Positions 2,448 through 55,949 of a stretch of 55,949 nt of DNA are shown piece by piece. Position 1 is the first letter of the stretch. Each line of letters begins with the position of its first letter. Position numbers and translations under genes: made by a program. The notes beneath the pieces are model-generated. The model saw only the letters and a program-made list of their open reading frames with translations, did no database searches and was not told the DNA's origin. Source of the DNA: Candidatus Falkowbacteria bacterium (GTDB lineage Bacteria; Patescibacteriota; Patescibacteriia; Patescibacteriales; UBA12465); assembly GCA_009995495.1 (NCBI GenBank), contig JAACPL010000007.1, positions 1 through 55,949 of the forward strand, in the 5' to 3' direction.

Positions 2448-4865
2448 ATGAGTAAGAAAAAATTTGTTCTTTTTTTTGAAGAGCTAGGAATTAAAGATGT
2501 TCCTTCTGTCGGTGGTAAAAACGCCTCTCTTGGTGAGATGTTTTCTAATTTGAGCAAAAAAGGAGTGAGAATTCCTGATGGTTTTGCAACAACAGCCGAG
2601 GCTTATAATTATTTTTTTGAAGCTAACGACTTAAAGAAAAAAATTAAAAAAATAATTAAAGGTCTTGATACTCACAATGTTAAAGATTTGATGGCCAGAG
2701 GAGCGGAAATCAGAAAAACAATTATGGCGGCGGAACTTCCTCAAGATTTAAAAGATCAAGTTGCCGAAGCTTATCGCAAGTTGTCAAAAAAACATGGTGA
2801 GAAGAATTCTGATGTTGCTGTTCGTTCTAGCGCAACCGCCGAAGATTTACCAGATGCTTCTTTCGCCGGTCAGCAGGAAACCTTTCTAAATGTTCAGGGA
2901 CAAGAGGACTTAATTTTAGCAGTTAAAAAATGTATTGCTTCTCTTTTTACCGATCGGGCTATTTCTTACCGGGTAGATAAAAAGTTTGATCACTTTTCTA
3001 TTTCTCTTTCGGTCGGCGTCCAAAAAATGGTGCGAGCCGATAAGGGTTCGTCTGGTGTTATGTTTAGTATTGATACGGAATCAGGCTTTAGCGGCGTTGT
3101 TTTAATTAATTCAATCTTTGGTTTAGGAGAAAATATTGTTCAGGGAAAAGTTACTCCTGACTCATTTTTAGTTTTTAAAGAAACGGAAAAAATTATTTCT
3201 CGTTCTATCGGCACTAAAAATTTACGAATGGTTTATAATCCAGGTGGCAAAAACCCAGTTAAAGATCTACCAGTTTCAGCTAGTGACGCAAAAAAACCAT
3301 CCTTAAACGACAGCCAAGTTTTAGAGTTAGCTAAATGGGCGATGATTATTGAGGAACACTATAAAAAACCGATGGATATGGAGTTCGCTTATGATGGAAT
3401 TTCCAAAAGAATGTATATTACCCAAGCGCGACCGGAAACAGTTCAGAGTCGTAAGGATGTTAATGTTATTGAAAGTTATAAACTTGAGAAAAAAGACAAA
3501 TTAAAAGTTTTGGTTAGCGGTCAAAGTGTTGGTTCTAAAATTGGTAGTGGCGAAGTTAATAAAATAATGTCAGTTAAAGATATTTCTAAGTTTAAAGCGG
3601 GTCAGGTTTTGTTAACTGATATGACTGATCCTGATTGGGAGCCGATTATGAAAATTGCTTCGGCGATTGTGACCGATAAAGGTGGCCGAACTTGTCATGC
3701 CGCGATTGTTTCTCGTGAACTTGGGATTCCTTGTATCGTTGGGACTGAAAATGCGACGAAAAAAATTAATCCAAGACGCCAAGTAACGATTGATTGTTCT
3801 ATTGGCGAGGTTGGTTATGTTTATGAAGGAAAAATTCCTTTTCAAATTGAGACAACTGATATTAAAGGTCTTAAGAAAACTAAAACTAAAATAATGATGA
3901 ATGTTGGTGAGCCTGATATGGCTTTTCCACATTCATTTTTACCTAATGATGGAGTTGGTTTAGCTCGTTTAGAATTTATCATTAATAATTACATTAAAAT
4001 TCACCCTCTGGCTCTAGTGCATTTTGCTAAATTAAAAGATAAGAAGGCAAAAAAGACGATTGAGAAGATGACGGAAACTTATCAAAAGAAGACCGAATAT
4101 TTTGTTGATCGTTTAGCTCAAGGAGTTGCTGTTTTAGCCTCAGCTTTTTATCCTAAAGATGTAATTTTAAGACTTAGCGATTTCAAAAGTAACGAATACG
4201 CTAATTTAATTGGCGGCCGAGAGTTTGAGCCAATTGAATCAAATCCGATGATTGGTTTCAGGGGTGCTTCTCGTTATTACTCAAAGGAATTTTTACCAGC
4301 TTTTAAATTAGAATGTGAGGCAATTAAAAGAGTTAGAGAGGAAATGGGACTTAAGAATTTAAAAGTCATGGTTCCTTTCTGTCGAACAATTGAAGAAGGC
4401 AAAGAAGTTCAAAGAATTATGGCCGAATGCGGACTTAAGCGTGGTGATAAAGGCTTGGAAATTTATGTGATGGCTGAAATTCCAAGTAACATTATTTTAG
4501 CTGAAGAATTTTGTCAGATTTTTGATGGCTTTTCTATTGGTTCAAATGATTTAACTCAACTTGCTTTAGGAATTGATCGTGATTCTGGAGGAACTTTAAA
4601 AGTAATTGGTGAGGCGAATGAGAATAATAAAGCGGTTAAAACTTTAATTCGTCAATTAATTAAAGTTGCTAAGAAAAATAAACGTAAAGTTGGAATTTGT
4701 GGTCAGGCGCCAAGCGATTTTCCTGAATTCGCTGAATTTTTAGTAGAAGAAGGAATAGATAGTATTTCTTTAACTCCGGACACGGTAGTTAAAACAACAA
4801 TCGCTTTATTAAAAAAAGAAAAAGCTTTACGCCGTAGCCGTAGTATTTTAAGCTTCTTGTTTTAA
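2448..4865 (+). CDS. ppsA: phosphoenolpyruvate synthase (pyruvate, water dikinase)
   Basis: 805 aa. N-terminal GGKNASLGEM ATP-grasp region, central phospho-His swivel motif GGRTCHAAIVSRELGIP, C-terminal PEP-utilising TIM-barrel region. Confidence 0.9.
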   Translation: MSKKKFVLFFEELGIKDVPSVGGKNASLGEMFSNLSKKGVRIPDGFATTAEAYNYFFEANDLKKKIKKIIKGLDTHNVKDLMARGAEIRKTIMAAELPQDLKDQVAEAYRKLSKKHGEKNSDVAVRSSATAEDLPDASFAGQQETFLNVQGQEDLILAVKKCIASLFTDRAISYRVDKKFDHFSISLSVGVQKMVRADKGSSGVMFSIDTESGFSGVVLINSIFGLGENIVQGKVTPDSFLVFKETEKIISRSIGTKNLRMVYNPGGKNPVKDLPVSASDAKKPSLNDSQVLELAKWAMIIEEHYKKPMDMEFAYDGISKRMYITQARPETVQSRKDVNVIESYKLEKKDKLKVLVSGQSVGSKIGSGEVNKIMSVKDISKFKAGQVLLTDMTDPDWEPIMKIASAIVTDKGGRTCHAAIVSRELGIPCIVGTENATKKINPRRQVTIDCSIGEVGYVYEGKIPFQIETTDIKGLKKTKTKIMMNVGEPDMAFPHSFLPNDGVGLARLEFIINNYIKIHPLALVHFAKLKDKKAKKTIEKMTETYQKKTEYFVDRLAQGVAVLASAFYPKDVILRLSDFKSNEYANLIGGREFEPIESNPMIGFRGASRYYSKEFLPAFKLECEAIKRVREEMGLKNLKVMVPFCRTIEEGKEVQRIMAECGLKRGDKGLEIYVMAEIPSNIILAEEFCQIFDGFSIGSNDLTQLALGIDRDSGGTLKVIGEANENNKAVKTLIRQLIKVAKKNKRKVGICGQAPSDFPEFAEFLVEEGIDSISLTPDTVVKTTIALLKKEKALRRSRSILSFLF

Positions 4866-8081: not shown

Positions 8082-8480
8082 TTAAGAGGCTAGAAAAGAA
8101 AAAGCCTTGATAATAAAGTAACTTATTGCATAAGAGCCAAGAACAACAATTAAACCAATAATCGCCTGTTTAATTGTTTTTGAGGCTTCTTGAACTTTAG
8201 CCTCTTGACCACCGGCGGTCATCCAATTAAAACCGCCAAGAATTAATAAAATCATGAAGATTATTCCTATGAAAGACAGGACAATATTTATTATTTTACT
8301 AATCATCTTTTCTAGTGATACATCATCTTTTGTGTTATAGCCCGCATTATTACCAACTTCCTCTTGGACCTCTTTAAAAGCATTTTTTAAATTTCGACCA
8401 GAGCTCTCAGTATCTTGCGCTAAACAAAGACCGGGGATTAGGCTAAAAAATATGAAGCTAGCAATTATTAATTTTTTCAT
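8082..8480 (-). CDS. TrbC/VirB2-like (T4SS-pilin family) small membrane protein
   Basis: Signal peptide, then GGFNWMTAGGQEAKV between two TM helices. Confidence 0.75.
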   Translation of the reverse strand: MKKLIIASFIFFSLIPGLCLAQDTESSGRNLKNAFKEVQEEVGNNAGYNTKDDVSLEKMISKIINIVLSFIGIIFMILLILGGFNWMTAGGQEAKVQEASKTIKQAIIGLIVVLGSYAISYFIIKAFSFLAS

Positions 8481-20077: not shown

Positions 20078-20151
20078 GGGCGCATAGCTCAGCTGGTTAG
20101 AGCACTTCGTTTACACCGAAGGGGTCCAGGGTTCGAATCCTTGTGCGCCCA
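20078..20151 (+). tRNA. tRNA-Val(UAC), no encoded CCA
   Basis: GGGCGCATAGCTCAGCTGGTTAGAGCA D-arm, anticodon stem CTTCG/CGAAG with loop TTTACAC, T-loop GGTTCGAATCC. A terminator hairpin follows (20155-20195). Confidence 0.9.
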
Positions 20152-20256
20152 CATAAACAAAAAGAGAAACCGTATGGTTTCTCTTTTTGTTTTAACTCAG
20201 TTGTTTTTTCGTGCTATAATTAAATTAATTAATTAATAATATTAACAATAGATAAC

Positions 20257-35761: not shown

Positions 35762-36502
35762 ATGAAAATAGTTTTACAAAAATTGATTGCCGAATCTGGA
35801 AAATGTTCAAGACGCCAAGCCGAAGATTTAATTCGGTCGGGAAAAGTTTTGCTTAATGGCGAAGAAGCTTTTTTGGGACAAAGAGCGGAGGCCGGAGTTG
35901 ATGTGGTTGAAGTTGAGGGAGAGATTTTAGGCGAGGCTAGAGACTTTATTTATTTAAAATTTAATAAGCCGGCGGGATATGTCTCAACAACCGCGAGTTT
36001 TCCGAATGAAAAAAGTATTTTTGAACTTGTGAACCTTGATGAAAAATTATTTCCGGTTGGTCGCTTAGATAAAGATAGTCGTGGATTAATGTTGTTAACT
36101 AATGATGGCGGTTTAGCACAAAAACTAAGTCACCCGCGTTATGAACATGAAAAAATTTATGAAGCGCGCGTTAAATTCGTTGGTAAAAGTTTTGGAGACG
36201 ATAGAGAGGCTGAATTAGCGCCGGAGCGAGTTGTGAGATTAATGGAAAAAGGTTTTGATATTGGCGAGGGGGACGGTTTAGCGCGGGCAAAAAAAGTTGA
36301 ATGTCTACAATATGGATTTTTTAGAATAACTTTAACCGAAGGAAAGAAGCGTCAAATTAGACGGATGTTTATGGAATTAGGTTTTAAGATTTTAGATTTG
36401 AAACGGGTTGAGTTAGCGGGATTAAAAATAGCTGGATTACCAGAAGGCTCTTGGGATTATTTGAGTGAGGAAGAGCTTAGTGATTTGAAGAGGGGGGCTT
36501 AG
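35762..36502 (+). CDS. RsuA/RluB-family pseudouridine synthase
   Basis: S4 domain (LQKLIAESG.CSRRQAE.LI..G.V..NG), catalytic GRLDKDS.GL.LLTNDG, and KKRQIRRMF. Confidence 0.8.
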   Translation: MKIVLQKLIAESGKCSRRQAEDLIRSGKVLLNGEEAFLGQRAEAGVDVVEVEGEILGEARDFIYLKFNKPAGYVSTTASFPNEKSIFELVNLDEKLFPVGRLDKDSRGLMLLTNDGGLAQKLSHPRYEHEKIYEARVKFVGKSFGDDREAELAPERVVRLMEKGFDIGEGDGLARAKKVECLQYGFFRITLTEGKKRQIRRMFMELGFKILDLKRVELAGLKIAGLPEGSWDYLSEEELSDLKRGA

Positions 36503-36536
36503 TTGTTTGGAAATAAATCTTAGTAATTAAGATAAG

Positions 36537-36623
36537 GGAGACTTGCCAGAGTGGTTGAATGGGACACTCTCGAAAAGTGTTGTGCTCGCAAGGGCACCCA
36601 GGGTTCGAATCCCTGAGTCTCCG
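36537..36623 (+). tRNA. tRNA-Ser(CGA), no encoded CCA
   Basis: Acceptor GGAGACT/AGTCTCC, anticodon stem ACACT/AGTGT with loop CTCGAAA, long variable arm, T-loop GGTTCGAATCC, discriminator G. Confidence 0.9.
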
Positions 36624-36659
36624 CAGGAGATAAAACAAAGAATGAAACTTTTGTTTCAG

Positions 36660-36834
36660 TCTTTGTTTTAGCTTCTTGAAAAGAAGCTGAGGGTTCGAAC
36701 TGGTTGGAAGCGAGACGCGAGAGAGGGCGGAAGCCCGAAAGAGCGAACGAGCGTCGGACGACTTGCCGGGGGCAAGTCGGACGCCAACCCTGGACAAGCG
36801 AACGAGGCGCTTGCCGGCGCTGAGTGAGGGCGAA
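36660..36834. other. strongly G+C-rich, hairpin-rich non-coding insert downstream of tRNA-Ser(CGA)
   Basis: There is an abrupt composition shift. It contains hairpin agcttctt-gaaa-aagaagct, hairpin cgacttgcc-ggg-ggcaagtcg, and a repeated agcgaacgag. It is bounded on the right by a copy of the tRNA 3' end. Confidence 0.5.
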
Positions 36835-36853
36835 AATCCCTGAGTCTCCGCAG
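36835..36853 (+). repeat. perfect 19-bp direct repeat of the tRNA-Ser(CGA) 3' end (first copy 36608-36626)
   Basis: aatccctgagtctccgcag occurs at 36608-36626 (inside and just past the tRNA) and again at 36835-36853. Confidence 0.85.
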
Positions 36854-36958
36854 TTTTCAATAGGCTTAAATATAGGATATTTTTTAAATAATTTAAATTT
36901 TGGAACAATTGTGATGCAATATATTTATAATAAATATATAAATAATTATAATTATTTT

Positions 36959-38530
36959 ATGAAAAAGTATTTTTCTACTCTTTCAATAAACGTTTTACTT
37001 TTATTGGTTTTTGTTATTAGTCTACTTTTACTAACAAGTTTTGGGGCGCAGGCAGGTAAAGAAATTATTGTTTCTTATAGCAAAGAAATTGTTCCAAAAA
37101 ATAATAGTGGTCGGATTTTTTGGAATACAAACACTAAGGCTAATTGTGAAGTTCTGCTTGGTGCCGAACCAAATTTAAGTGATGCTGTTGTTTTTAAAGG
37201 TTATATGGGAAATGAAAATATTGATACTGAAACTGGGCCACAATCCTTTGTTGCCCTGTTATCTAATGTGTCTCCTGGTGTTAATTATTATCAAATTCGT
37301 TGTATTGATGATAATGGCATACTTATCGATGAAACTGATATTGAAGAAATAACAAACACACAAATTGATACCAGCAAAATGATTATTGATAGTGTTCGAG
37401 CTACTCATGTTACCGCGACTTCAGCCAACATCTATATGCACACAAACAATCGGTATGATTGTAAAGTTGAATATAGTGATTTATCTGGCAACAGTGGTAG
37501 TGAGGAGGGGATTTTAAATCAGTCGGCCAATCCGGATAATGGAGAATATTTTATATACACTGCTATGGTAAGAGATTTGAAGGCTAGTACAAGATACGAT
37601 TATAAAATTGTTTGTAATGATGCTAACAATATTATTGAGAGTAAAAATTATGCTTTTTATACACAAATGCATAATGAGGATATAGTTATTAGTGATATAG
37701 ACTTGGTTCACGTTTCTGATAGTTCGGTAAAAATAAGCTGGAAAACAAATATGGATACATCTTATAATTATGTAATGTTTTATAATCAAAATTCACGGAC
37801 AGGAAGAGGGTATTATGAAGATAAGAATCAATTTAAAAAGGAGCATGAAGTTATTATTCCTGACCTATTAACTACAGGTTCTTATGAATATTCTATATAT
37901 TCTGGATTGTTAGAGGGCGGTAGCGTATATGCCATGACTGAGTATTTTGGTGTTTCTGATAACGTTGGCCCTACATTAAATAACCCGAATGTTAATCGAG
38001 GAGCTATTGACGCAACTGAGGTTGTAAAAGTTGATAAGGAATTTAGTCAAAAGTTGGCTGGAAAAATATTGCTTCAAGTTGAATCTCGTGGTGAGGCTTA
38101 TTATGTTAATCCTAAAGATAATAAGAAGTATTATATGTCTGATGGAAAATCAGCTTTTAGTATAATGAGAAATCTTGGCACAGGAATAAGTAATAACGAT
38201 CTTAATAAAATTCCTGTAGTCCGTAATTCTATTGATAGTTTAGAAAAAATAGACTCGGATGGTGATGGCTATAATGATAAGCAGGAATTACTAAATGGCT
38301 ATAATCCAAATGGTGCTGGTAAATTAATGTTAGATGCGTCTTTTAGTAATAAAAATAGAGGAAGAATTTTTTTACAAGTTGAATCACGCGGCGAGGCTTG
38401 GTATATTAACCCTAGTGATGGTTTAAGATATTATTTAGGAACGCCTAATGATGCATTTAATATTATGAGACAATTAGGATTAGGAATAACTAATATAAAC
38501 TTAAATAAGATTGCCACTGCCAAAAACTAA
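36959..38530 (+). CDS. secreted repeat protein (FN3-like repeats, Ca-binding-like DxDxDG motif, two C-terminal about 55-aa repeats)
   Basis: I place the start at MKKYFS (36959), which gives a signal peptide. There are three repeats of the ...W.TN....C.V.Y type. Then DSDGDGYNDKQE. Finally duplicated (I/L)(L/F)LQVESRGEA(Y/W)Y(V/I)NP....YY......AF.IMR.LG.GI.N..LNKI. Confidence 0.65.
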   Translation: MKKYFSTLSINVLLLLVFVISLLLLTSFGAQAGKEIIVSYSKEIVPKNNSGRIFWNTNTKANCEVLLGAEPNLSDAVVFKGYMGNENIDTETGPQSFVALLSNVSPGVNYYQIRCIDDNGILIDETDIEEITNTQIDTSKMIIDSVRATHVTATSANIYMHTNNRYDCKVEYSDLSGNSGSEEGILNQSANPDNGEYFIYTAMVRDLKASTRYDYKIVCNDANNIIESKNYAFYTQMHNEDIVISDIDLVHVSDSSVKISWKTNMDTSYNYVMFYNQNSRTGRGYYEDKNQFKKEHEVIIPDLLTTGSYEYSIYSGLLEGGSVYAMTEYFGVSDNVGPTLNNPNVNRGAIDATEVVKVDKEFSQKLAGKILLQVESRGEAYYVNPKDNKKYYMSDGKSAFSIMRNLGTGISNNDLNKIPVVRNSIDSLEKIDSDGDGYNDKQELLNGYNPNGAGKLMLDASFSNKNRGRIFLQVESRGEAWYINPSDGLRYYLGTPNDAFNIMRQLGLGITNINLNKIATAKN

Positions 38531-38898
38531 AGGGATGGGTTAAGGTACTAATAAAGTTCCAAGACTGTCCTACCCTCTCCGTCAGGAGATAAATTAAAAG
38601 ACAAAAAAATGTTTTATAATTAACACTATCATATGTCAATCAAAAACAAGCCTCTTAAAATATCAAAATTTCCGGAGATTGTTAGGATGATAAAGAAAGA
38701 TTTAGATTTATAAAACTTATCTTTCTTTCTTTTATAATTCACTCTTCTCTAATATTTAATCTTTTTTACGTTTTGCTAATAAATATTTGACTTTTATATT
38801 AATTAGCAATACTATGTATATTTTTTCTAGCAAAAAATATGCTTTCAAAAAAGCTTTTTTATTATTGCTAATTAACTTATTTATTATTAATTTAGAAT

Positions 38899-47886: not shown

Positions 47887-50100
47887 ATGGAAAAGAAAAT
47901 TGATTTAGATATAACTGGAATGACTTGCGCCTCTTGTTCAGCTCTGATTCAAAGGGCGCTTGATAAAGATGGGCGAGTTAAAAAAGCCAGCGTTAATATA
48001 GCGACAAATAAAGCTTCGCTAGTTTTTGATGAAGATAAAATCTCTAGTGCCGGTATAATTGAATTAATTAAAAAAACTGGCTACGGAGCTAGTATTGCTA
48101 ATTCTGAAAATGATATTTCGGCGAAACTTGTTAAATCACGCTATCTTCGTTTTTTATGGTCACTTATTTTTGGCTTGCCTTTATTTTATTTAGCGATGGG
48201 CATGATAGTCGGTTTGCCAGAATTAAAGATTTCAATGATGGCTAATATTTCTTGGCAATTAATTTTTACTTTAGCAATTATTATTATCAATAGAAACATT
48301 TATTCCTCTGGTTTTTCCAAACTCTTTAAACGACAGCCGAATATGGCTAGCTTAATTGCGATTGGCACCCTAGCAGCCTTCTTTTATTCGATTTTTGTTT
48401 ATTTAGGAATATTGTTTTATCCGGAAAATGTCGCCTCGGCTCATGTTTATTTTGAAAGTGCTGGTTTTATTTTGATTTTTATTGCTTTAGGGAAATATTT
48501 AGAGGAGAAAACTAAGGGAAGAACTGGGAACGCGATTAAAAAGTTAATTGGTTTACAGCCAAAAACAGCTCTTGTTAGTCGTGATAATCAAGAAATTGAA
48601 GTTAGTATTTCTGAGCTAATTAAGGGTGATATTATTATTGTTAAAGTGGGAGATAAAATTCCGGTTGATGGCGAGATAATATTTGGTGAGTCAACAATTG
48701 ATGAAAGCGCAATTACTGGAGAAAGTATTCCTGTTTTTAAAAAGCTTGGTGATAAATTAATTGGCGGAACAATTAATAAAACTAGTATTTTAAAATTTAG
48801 AGCGACTGGAGTCGGAAGTGAAACGATGTTGGCGCAAATAATTAAAATTATGGAAGAAGCGGTTGCCTCTAAGGCGCCAATCCAGTTGTTAGTTGATAAG
48901 GTTTCTTATTATTTTGTCCCGACCGTTATTGGCTTAGCTATTATTTCTTTTCTTGTTTGGTATTTTCTTGGTTTCGGTTTTTATTTTGCCTTAACGGCTT
49001 TTGTTTCTGTTTTAATTATTGCTTGCCCTTGTGCTTTAGGTTTGGCAACGCCAACGGCAGTGATGATGGGTACAGGTTTAGCAGCGAAAAACGGAATTTT
49101 AATTAAAAGTTCAGTTGCCCTTGAAGCGGCTAATAAAATTCAGGCAGTTGTTTTTGATAAAACCGGAACTTTAACTAAGGGTCAGCCAGAAGTTGTGGAA
49201 ATTTTTGGTTTTGGCTTTTCCGAAGCCCAGATTTTAAAAATTTCTCAAGCACTGGCTCGGAATTCTCGCCATCCTTTGTCTGAGGCGGTCGTGCGTTATG
49301 CTAAAGAAAAAAATGCGCCTCAAGTTGAGCTTGATAATTTTGAGGAAAAGGAGGGGATGGGGTTAAAAGCTTTTTGTCGGGAGCATAAAACTAAATTATT
49401 ATTAGGTAATAAAAAATTATTAGAACTTGAAGGTCTTAGTTTTAATGATGAAGTTGAAGCCGTTTTTGATCGTTTTGCTAGCGCCGGGAAAACACCATTG
49501 TTTATTAGCCACGGTGATAAGGTTGCCGGCTTAATTGCAATTATTGATGATATTAAAGATAGTAGTCTAGAAGCGGTTAAAGAATTGAAACGACGAGGGC
49601 AAGAAGTCTATATGATAACTGGTGATAATGAAAAAGTGGCACAGGCGATTGCCGAGAAATTGGGAATAGATAAGGTTTTAGCCAATGTTTTTCCGGCTGA
49701 TAAGGCGAAAAAAATTAAAGAGCTACAAGAGAGTGGTTTAGTCGTCGCTATGGTTGGTGACGGAATTAATGACGCGCCAGCTTTAGCGCAAGCGAACTTA
49801 GGGATTGCCCTAGCTTCGGGGACTGATGTCGCCCTTGAGGCCGGAGAAATTATTTTGGTTAAGAATGATTTGCGTGATGTTGTTAAAGCGATTGATATTT
49901 CTAAGTTTACAATTCATAAAATTAGACAAAATCTTTTTTGGGCCTTTATTTATAATATTTTAGGCATACCGGTGGCCGCCGGCGTCTTCTATTTTATTTT
50001 TGGAGTTTTATTAAATCCGATGATTGCCGCTCTTGCTATGTCTTTTTCCTCGGTTAGCGTTGTTAGTAATTCGCTCTTGATAAAATTCTATCGTCGTTAG
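47887..50100 (+). CDS. copA: copper-translocating P1B-type ATPase
   Basis: GMTCASC HMA motif, TGES, CPC in TM6, DKTGTLT phosphorylation site, GDGINDAP hinge. Confidence 0.9.
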   Translation: MEKKIDLDITGMTCASCSALIQRALDKDGRVKKASVNIATNKASLVFDEDKISSAGIIELIKKTGYGASIANSENDISAKLVKSRYLRFLWSLIFGLPLFYLAMGMIVGLPELKISMMANISWQLIFTLAIIIINRNIYSSGFSKLFKRQPNMASLIAIGTLAAFFYSIFVYLGILFYPENVASAHVYFESAGFILIFIALGKYLEEKTKGRTGNAIKKLIGLQPKTALVSRDNQEIEVSISELIKGDIIIVKVGDKIPVDGEIIFGESTIDESAITGESIPVFKKLGDKLIGGTINKTSILKFRATGVGSETMLAQIIKIMEEAVASKAPIQLLVDKVSYYFVPTVIGLAIISFLVWYFLGFGFYFALTAFVSVLIIACPCALGLATPTAVMMGTGLAAKNGILIKSSVALEAANKIQAVVFDKTGTLTKGQPEVVEIFGFGFSEAQILKISQALARNSRHPLSEAVVRYAKEKNAPQVELDNFEEKEGMGLKAFCREHKTKLLLGNKKLLELEGLSFNDEVEAVFDRFASAGKTPLFISHGDKVAGLIAIIDDIKDSSLEAVKELKRRGQEVYMITGDNEKVAQAIAEKLGIDKVLANVFPADKAKKIKELQESGLVVAMVGDGINDAPALAQANLGIALASGTDVALEAGEIILVKNDLRDVVKAIDISKFTIHKIRQNLFWAFIYNILGIPVAAGVFYFIFGVLLNPMIAALAMSFSSVSVVSNSLLIKFYRR

Positions 50101-53864: not shown

Positions 53865-53919
53865 CTTGCCAAAATTTAAGTTCTTATTTATAATAAACAG
53901 GTATTAAAAACAAAATATT

Positions 53920-55482
<1,563 letters not shown>

Positions 55483-55610
55483 ATATTTCTAATTAGCTGT
55501 TCTTTTTAACAAGGATAACCATTAAATATTGCTAGTTATTTTGTTGAATATTCGTGGGAGCGGTCTGTTGTGTGCCTATGGTCAAGTTAATATATTTTAT
55601 AATATATATA

Positions 55611-55685
55611 GGCCGGGTCCGTTTTTCTTTTTCGGCTCCCCCTCCGGGGGATCCGCCGAAGAAAGAAAAAAACGGAACCTCGGCC
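55611..55685. repeat. long imperfect palindrome (about 75 nt) upstream of the recombinase gene
   Basis: ggccgggtccgtttttctttttcggc | tccccc-tcc-ggggga | tccgccgaagaaagaaaaaaacggaacctcggcc. The G+C-rich ends and centre pair, and the T-run and A-run arms pair with bulges. Confidence 0.6.
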
Positions 55686-55949
55686 ATATTTCAATCTTAG
55701 CAAATCAGAGTTAACGAAAGTTCCGGGGAAGATTTAGGGGAAGAAAATGAGCCTTATTTATCTAATGATAGCAAAACGGTATTGGACAAAGTTTAGCTAA
55801 AGATTTAGGTTAAGAAATCGACCATATTTTGTTTAATATTAACAAACCGGCTTACAGGAAACTTCACCTGAAAATTTACCTGTAGATTATGGCAAAGCGA
55901 GGTTTGACTAAGTTTGACCGAAAGAATGGTCAAAGGTATTTTAAACTAT

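Follow-up and report, generated by a model that had tools for sequence, protein, structure and literature searches.

Why should the 3' end of an intact serine tRNA gene be repeated, letter for letter, a short distance downstream of itself, and why should the DNA between the two copies be so much richer in G+C than its surroundings? These questions are raised by positions 36537–36853 of a 55,949-nucleotide (nt) stretch of the genome of a Candidatus Falkowbacteria bacterium (contig JAACPL010000007.1), hereafter the window. We conclude that 36627–36853 is a real 227-bp mobile, non-coding cassette carrying a strongly structured RNA, and that it is probably an integrative, non-autonomous element that inserted at the tRNA-Ser(CGA) 3' end. 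The locus is made up of the following parts:

36537–36624, + strand: intact tRNA-Ser(CGA) gene (ARAGORN; Rfam tRNA model, 54.3 bits)
36634–36667 (predicted), + strand: AT-rich terminator-like hairpin between an A-run and a T-run, forming the first part of the cassette; predicted by folding and present at the same place in every copy
36668–36690 (predicted), + strand: small linker hairpin agcttctt..aagaagct (agcttcttgaaaagaagct), predicted by folding
36689–36841, + strand: GC-rich structured RNA motif (covariance model R1, 172.5 bits, E 5e-43; helices and covariation)
36835–36853, + strand: second copy of the repeat (tRNA nt 58–73 plus CAG), defined by exact repetition and by pairing in helix P1

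An earlier note, made from the letters alone, had claimed a perfect duplication of the tRNA-Ser(CGA) 3' end around a G+C-rich, hairpin-bearing insert, and these claims held. The 19-mer AATCCCTGAGTCTCCGCAG is present at 36608–36626 and 36835–36853 with 0 mismatches (19/19 identity), where 0 matches are expected from 100 shuffles; its nearest and sole near match elsewhere in the window is the end of tRNA-Ser(TGA) at 53991, with 2 mismatches. The first copy corresponds to nt 58 to the 3' end of tRNA-Ser(CGA) plus CAG. By alignment, the repeat begins within the T-loop UUCGAAU, at its first A (tRNA position 58), and ends 3 nt beyond the discriminator. Within the second copy the first 5–8 nt form the 3' strand of helix P1 of the RNA described below, and the remainder forms a 3' tail. 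The G+C content of the window is 33.4% and peaks at 36677–36867, where 80-nt windows attain 70%; apart from this peak, only 49767–49850 (59%), inside a P-type ATPase open reading frame (ORF; 47887–50100), has 58% or more. The AT-rich and linker hairpins fold together at -25.6 kcal/mol (z = -5.0), the hairpin cgacttgcc-ggg-ggcaagtcg is part of helix P4 (36759–36779), and agcgaacgag is present twice in the insert. No ORF, and thus no integrase, is present within the 227 bp, which lie between a pseudouridine synthase gene and a gene for a secreted protein; the closest named relatives of the flanking gene are from Candidatus Falkowbacteria. Positions 36300–37200 are tiled at flank depth by overlapping error-free Logan contigs from several independent runs, and independent public metagenomes from a cold spring, an aquifer and groundwater cross both junctions without a break. 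Because contigs from independent samples span both junctions, the insert is not an assembly chimera.

Comparison with relatives, which the earlier note had proposed, yielded both an empty and an occupied site. In contig L129 (pseudouridine synthase 63% identity), tRNA-Ser(CGA) is followed directly by ACATCGTGCTCGCACGAG without a cassette; an empty site at the locus in the window would read tRNA-Ser(CGA)|TTTTCAATAGG. In contig L128 (pseudouridine synthase 91%), a 227-nt unit consisting of hairpin, linker hairpin, GC-rich RNA and an 18-nt repeat lies between the same two sequences. The two sites differ by exactly one unit with the same boundaries as in the window, and the pair therefore defines the unit whether it was gained or lost; the insert is not conserved in all relatives. 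Since the AT-rich hairpin lies inside the L128 insertion relative to the empty L129 site, it belongs to the mobile unit. Its sequence varies among family members with the structure retained, and a terminator consensus scan called none at 36634–36667, where the stems are AT-rich and a stable hairpin and T-run are present. The linker hairpin is common to the window, L128 and L055 copies only. A similar native hairpin, without a cassette, follows tRNA-Val (20078–20152). Synteny searches through the downstream protein gave no informative loci, and two 128-aa genes that looked syntenic proved to be unrelated.

Contigs L001 and L127, from close relatives, stop at the tRNA-Ser(CGA) 3' end or inside the cassette, because the cassette repeat family fragments metagenome assemblies. 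Several such metagenome-assembled genomes are labelled 'uncultured Gammaproteobacteria' or 'Actinomycetes', and their content is Patescibacteria-like.

The payload of the cassette is an RNA motif of about 153 nt, for which a five-helix consensus was obtained from 15 distinct copies:

36691–36695 with 36835–36839, + strand: P1, which closes the motif
36702–36707 with 36784–36789, + strand: P2, a consensus helix
36710–36718 with 36743–36752, + strand: P3, capped by a GGAA hairpin at 36725–36736
36755–36767 with 36771–36783, + strand: P4, a long hairpin
36806–36810 with 36817–36821, + strand: P5, located after P4

P2 bears a three-way arrangement of P3 and P4, and the GGAA hairpin of P3 is flanked by purine-rich internal loops. 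Pairing was found in 95.3% of cells, as compared with 31–40% in controls with slid partners, and compensatory changes on both sides were present in 25 of the 40 pairs; none of 500 shuffles attained the observed values. G-U pairs outnumber A-C pairs by 23 to 7, which favors the + strand, that of the tRNA. Covariance model R1, built from 17 copies, detected a single full copy in the window (36689–36841). When Rfam 15 was searched on both strands, at gathering thresholds and at E <= 10, only tRNA was matched, and nothing was returned for 36627–36853, including tmRNA, ribozymes, omega/HEARO, raiA, ROOL and GOLLD; ARAGORN likewise found no tmRNA in the window. The core is thus a conserved, covarying structured RNA motif that no Rfam family matches, as the folding and covariation analysis suggested in the earlier note bears out.

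Helix P1 ties the RNA to its tRNA. Its 3' strand is the start of the tRNA-derived repeat, and its 5' strand complements nt 58–60 of the cognate tRNA in 15 of 15 copies, versus 13% for non-cognate combinations. As nt 58–60 are T-loop positions, the 5' strand was not copied from the T-arm and is instead a complement made for this purpose. The P3 domain of the L128 core is unlike that of the window, and this 'type 2' domain recurs behind Gly and Glu tRNAs, being identical in the Gly-3, L128 Ser and L050b Glu copies.

Several other identities were considered for the structure and rejected. A tRNA-like cloverleaf with a T-loop insert would require a 5' acceptor pairing; this pairing, GGAGAU, is confined to the window and L049, and the remaining copies are not preceded by a tRNA 5' half. 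A T-loop or group I intron is incompatible with the complete upstream tRNA, the small core and the unsuited boundary nucleotides. A hammerhead-like CUGAGUGAG...CGAAA is not conserved in the alignment, a minus-strand gene terminated by the hairpin is disfavored by the G-U to A-C asymmetry, and a riboswitch does not fit genes that differ downstream at every locus.

The same unit recurs widely. A scan of metagenome contigs with a conserved core 22-mer yielded 17 loci; together with L081, from a scan of species genomes, and L128 and L131–L136, from contigs of relatives, about 20 distinct copies were collected. Every copy has the same order: a tRNA end or att-like junction, the AT-rich hairpin, a short linker, the GC-rich core of about 153 nt and a copy of the local tRNA end, which runs from A58 to 1–5 nt beyond the tRNA. 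The insertion boundary is nt 57/58 in all copies. Near-identical cores are located behind eight types of tRNA: Ser(CGA), Ser(GCT), a Ser(TGA) type, Gln(TTG), Glu(CTC), Asp(GTC), Leu(CAA) and Gly(TCC). The family is found in groundwater Patescibacteria, often in tandem arrays. Depth over 36694–36840 was 25–35 times that of the flanks, with many short contigs 85–95% identical and bearing compensatory-looking variants, which implies that the community holds numerous copies. Mismatches between the two L053 repeats, at nt 64 and 75, locate the crossover of that copy within the acceptor core. A degenerate pattern matched by most family members gave 60 matches in 185,579 species genomes, of which 59 were chance matches in GC-rich genomes as judged by nhmmer and only L081 was real, indicating a patchy distribution; an exact 21-mer returned only a chance match inside a Ruegeria coding region. 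Divergent members were also noticed in wastewater and aquifer metatranscriptome assemblies (runs X26 and X30), one with a middle segment shorter by 70 nt, so the range of the family may extend beyond groundwater, and its members may be transcribed.

Two explanations offered in the earlier note are sustained by these copies: a miniature non-autonomous element, in that many tRNA genes carry the minimal unit with identical boundaries, and a structured RNA gene delivered by insertion, in that the payload is a covarying structured RNA motif. A third, that of a remnant left by deletion, is rejected, given the independent recurrence of one and the same minimal unit.

The genome under study itself contains at least three loci of the family. 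The second is at the left edge of the window:

1–141, - strand: tRNA-Gly(TCC) at 141–69, a hairpin at about 66–26, a linker, and GGGGGAATCGAACT at 14–1, cut by the window edge

Here GGGGGAATCGAACT is a P1 5' strand complementary to tRNA-Gly nt 58–65. Contigs with an identical neighboring transporter extend this edge and contain three tandem cassettes in some samples and two in others; in the two-copy form, cassettes 2 and 3 are fused within the conserved core, which is chimeric. Arrays of two and three copies with a chimeric core imply copy-number polymorphism by homologous recombination, which also explains the mosaic cores. The third locus is on contig L056, which is 100% identical to window positions 53899–55949 over 2051 nt and has a further GC-RNA cassette at its positions 3593–3711, about 1.5 kb beyond the right end of the window.

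What could move a cassette that encodes no enzyme? A recombinase gene and a neighboring gene module bear on this question:

53920–54007, + strand: tRNA-Ser(TGA), abutting the recombinase gene
53971–55482, - strand: large serine recombinase of 503 aa with Resolvase, Recombinase and Zn_ribbon_recom domains
36854–38590, + strand: cargo module starting with TTTTCAATAGGC, with its end motif at 38556–38590

For about its last 12 codons the recombinase gene uses the complementary strand of the tRNA-Ser(TGA) 3' end, and excision would therefore alter the C-terminus of the protein. This tRNA and the recombinase mark the left boundary of a roughly 3.4-kb island, whose right end, beyond the window, is GTTCCAATATAATACCAAG|CTCTCCGC before another GC-RNA cassette. 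Related recombinases adjoin cassette ends in L059/L065 and L049. Downstream of every small gene in the arrays come (A)AAACCGTTCCAAnnnnnGTCCCACC|CTCTCCGC and a hairpin. The gene-cassette arm reads GTTCCAA, 5 nt and TCCCACC, whereas in the tRNA GTTCGAA is directly followed by TCCC. In serine integrase sites, attP and attB are reported to differ in the position of the zinc-ribbon motif, by a shift of 5 bp (Rutherford et al., 2013; PMC3783163). The 5-nt offset matches this shift, which places the crossover inside CTCTCCGC.

The cargo module next to the cassette has junctions of the same type. Its start, TTTTCAATAGGC, resembles the TTTGTCAATATC arm beside the recombinase at 54010; the product of its gene (36959–38530) is a secreted protein of 523 aa in which a purple-acid-phosphatase N-terminal domain is combined with a TSP3 repeat; and its end motif, GTTCCAAGACTGTCCTACC|CTCTCCGTCAG (38556–38590), is followed by a decayed cassette-type hairpin start. 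A near-identical end motif precedes a GC-RNA cassette in L049, and homologues of the 523-aa protein fetched from other Patescibacteria were without the junction motif. Given the recombinase-type junctions around the cargo, the locus is a small array of tRNA, RNA cassette, gene cassette and remnant. Cassettes also occur between recombinase-type junctions far from any tRNA, in L055 and as the third copy of L059. From this context a link between the cassette and the serine recombinase of the window is plausible.

Some further features of these arrays were noted. Positions 8470–10320 of L059 (also L053 and L065) hold three single-gene cassettes, encoding a 224-aa receiver-domain protein and two uncharacterized proteins of 131 and 92 aa; each ends in GTTCCAA-N5-(G)TCCCACC-CTCTCCGC plus a hairpin, and attR-type junctions outnumber attL-type ones. 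An identical cassette and downstream array follows tRNA-Ser(GCT) in L053/L059 and tRNA-Ser(TGA) plus the recombinase island in L065; this suggests that whole arrays are moved or recombined from one tRNA-Ser isoacceptor locus to another. In the window, a long GC-rich imperfect palindrome (minus strand, -47.4 kcal/mol, z = -5.6) occupies 55611–55690, shortly before the start codon of the recombinase gene; it might be a regulatory hairpin or a site for an accessory factor.

The explanation we favor, and consider probable, is that a 227-bp non-autonomous cassette integrated at the tRNA-Ser(CGA) 3' end. It builds on things directly observed: the family and its boundaries, empty versus occupied sites, tandem arrays, copy-number polymorphism, chimeric cores, the RNA structure, and the interleaving with attP-type gene cassettes. 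On insertion the cassette would have supplied a terminator-like hairpin, now placed after the intact tRNA, a structured RNA gene of about 153 nt and a distal tRNA-like arm, which comprises nt 58 to the 3' end and would account for the second copy of the tRNA end. The RNA core would be closed by P1, formed between an internal strand and the tRNA-derived nt 58–65, with the acceptor 3' strand left as a tail. Insertion would have occurred by site-specific recombination within the acceptor-strand core, about CTCTCCGC, with catalysis in trans, most likely by the co-resident large serine recombinases, and the cassette may be a portable attB-like unit that travels within recombinase arrays. The RNA would be transcribed on the + strand and might serve the element as a recombination cofactor, as a mimic of the tRNA end or as selfish cargo. 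Hitch-hiking as an attB-like unit, a tyrosine integrase encoded elsewhere and a role of the RNA itself are all possibilities for how the cassette moves. A more specific version, in which a tRNA-anchored system uses the RNA, with P1 and tail in target-tRNA sequence, to mark, regenerate or guide a serine-recombinase site, appears rather unlikely.

A number of observations weigh against integration by this route. The own arm of the RNA cassette (GAGYGAGSGCGRWW then nt 58–65; GGGCGGAAATCCC) has no GTTC(G/C)AA at attB or attP spacing, and its other arm resembles a native tRNA terminator; an excised circle with these features would have a site resembling attB. Recombination between such a site and attB is not carried out by canonical serine integrases, and their chemistry leaves solo copies at otherwise empty tRNA loci unexplained. 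No recombinase is present inside or beside the cassette in the window, L081 or L128, and a tyrosine integrase encoded elsewhere is a possible mover. Among viral contigs no family copy was found, the one match being due to chance. The empty L129 site could reflect secondary loss through the 18-nt repeats. As to expression, one RNA run from the same sample gave zero coverage, and the family fragments in the two RNA-library assemblies (L053 3456–3603 in run X26; 3540–3619 in X30) come with no strand information and may be DNA carry-over.

The absence of a recombinase in cis and of viral copies would also suit a family of host small-RNA genes located downstream of tRNAs, in which the copy of nt 58–76 was kept to mimic or engage the cognate tRNA end and has nothing to do with integration. 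Such RNAs could act in processing, CCA addition, or the supply or protection of 3' fragments, with arrays and losses produced by ordinary recombination. The covariation of P1 with tRNA type is compatible with this role, as is homogenization of the cores by homologous recombination, and the tRNA-adjacent repeats are perfect while the hairpins and helices of neighboring cassettes show about 20% divergence, a contrast suggestive of selection on the tail. We nevertheless regard a host gene family as unlikely, in view of the near-identical cores at eight tRNA types, the precise presence/absence boundaries, the cassettes between recombinase-type junctions far from tRNAs (L055 and the third copy of L059), and a distribution so patchy that 185,579 species genomes gave one match. 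It is improbable that the RNA itself programs mobility, its P1 5' strand and 3' tail guiding a trans-encoded recombinase or nuclease to tRNA nt 58–76 in the manner of bridge or omega RNAs. Such a guide would account for a scaffold joined to a 17–19-nt target-identical 3' segment, for one core type combined with different tRNA-specific P1 helices and tails (Gly-3, L128 Ser, L050b Glu), and for a boundary that is always nt 57/58. However, none of the copies was seen to have an IS110, TnpB, IscB or Cas gene next to it, shuffling of cores by homologous recombination gives the same core with different arms without any guiding, and in the free RNA the putative guide is sequestered in P1. We know of no serine recombinase that uses RNA.

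The fold might instead act in single-stranded DNA as an attC-like recombination site, a proposal we find slightly more doubtful still. Arrays whose units end in a structured element resemble integrons, and folding of the top DNA strand fits the asymmetry between G-T and A-C pairs as well. But no integron-type integrase was seen, the neighboring junctions suit double-strand serine-integrase sites, and five helices with a GNRA-capped hairpin and conserved purine-rich internal loops are like a functional RNA and far more complex than attC. That the cassette is what remained after internal deletion of a larger integrated element is very improbable: larger recombinase-bearing islands do use the same kind of site (window position 53920 onward; L059), but the same minimal unit with the same boundaries is present in at least 12 independent junction contexts, at eight tRNA types and also in tandem, and its sequence is under structural selection. 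An assembly chimera or a foreign GC-rich contaminant is scarcely credible. The sharp jump in G+C and the contig breaks in relatives (L001, L127) might suggest one, but error-free contigs from independent samples cross both junctions, L128 has the orthologous structure, and the repeat family itself accounts for the breaks.

Among known systems, tRNA-targeted integrative elements and their non-autonomous derivatives (cis-mobilizable elements of the CIME type; islands with 16–20-bp repeats of a tRNA 3' end) are alike in the intact tRNA, the direct repeat from T-loop to gene end, the empty site in a relative, the lack of an internal recombinase and tandem accretion. They differ in that the cassette payload is only about 210 bp with one structured RNA gene; moreover, the cassette repeat is built into the closing helix of the RNA, eight tRNA types are used, and the nearby recombinases are of the serine and not the tyrosine class. 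In arrays of the staphylococcal cassette chromosome (SCC) type, CcrAB serine recombinases act on elements and recombinase-less pseudo-elements located between 15–18-bp repeats at the 3' end of a conserved gene. The likeness lies in serine recombinase genes abutting the site, in tandem units between repeats of the target 3' end, and in recombinase-less units presumably moved in trans; the target here, however, is a tRNA 3' end and not rlmH, and the units are tiny gene or RNA cassettes. Targets in tRNA genes are unusual for large serine integrases. The arms of the neighboring gene cassettes, set against the tRNA, show the 5-bp motif shift of large serine integrase attP/attB pairs (PMC3783163), whereas the own arm of the RNA cassette has neither the attP nor the attB arrangement. 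Integron arrays are likewise strings of short units, most with a single gene, and each unit is terminated by a conserved recombination motif and then a hairpin conserved in shape and variable in sequence, but no IntI-type tyrosine recombinase, attI or attC is present here, and the anchor is a tRNA gene. Finally, IS110 bridge RNAs and TnpB/IscB omega RNAs share a structured scaffold joined to a short target-identical segment; unlike them, this RNA has no matching effector nearby and no Rfam match, and part of its target-like segment is taken up in internal pairing. Neither such an RNA, nor such an array, nor an RNA fused to a tRNA-derived att arm was found described in literature searches. We therefore appear to be dealing with a new, undescribed RNA family within an unusual tRNA-anchored cassette system of Patescibacteria.

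Hardly any non-coding RNAs are, to our knowledge, known from the candidate phyla radiation, and the cassette adds a well-supported structured RNA class of about 153 nt, noticed through its G+C contrast in a 33% genome. This RNA is physically fused to a recombination site, the tRNA-derived att arm being part of its fold. For those who assemble metagenomes there is a practical consequence, in that the family breaks assemblies at tRNA genes, as in L001 and L127. Integrase engineering may also be concerned, since the T-loop, which is near-universal, appears to be what the recombinases recognize. Tiny gene cassettes arrayed on tRNA anchors, with arms of the serine-integrase type, bear on how accessory genes are exchanged in ultra-small genomes. 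If RNA-assisted recombination proved true, the system would be a retargetable integration platform, integron-like and built on serine recombinases and tRNA ends.
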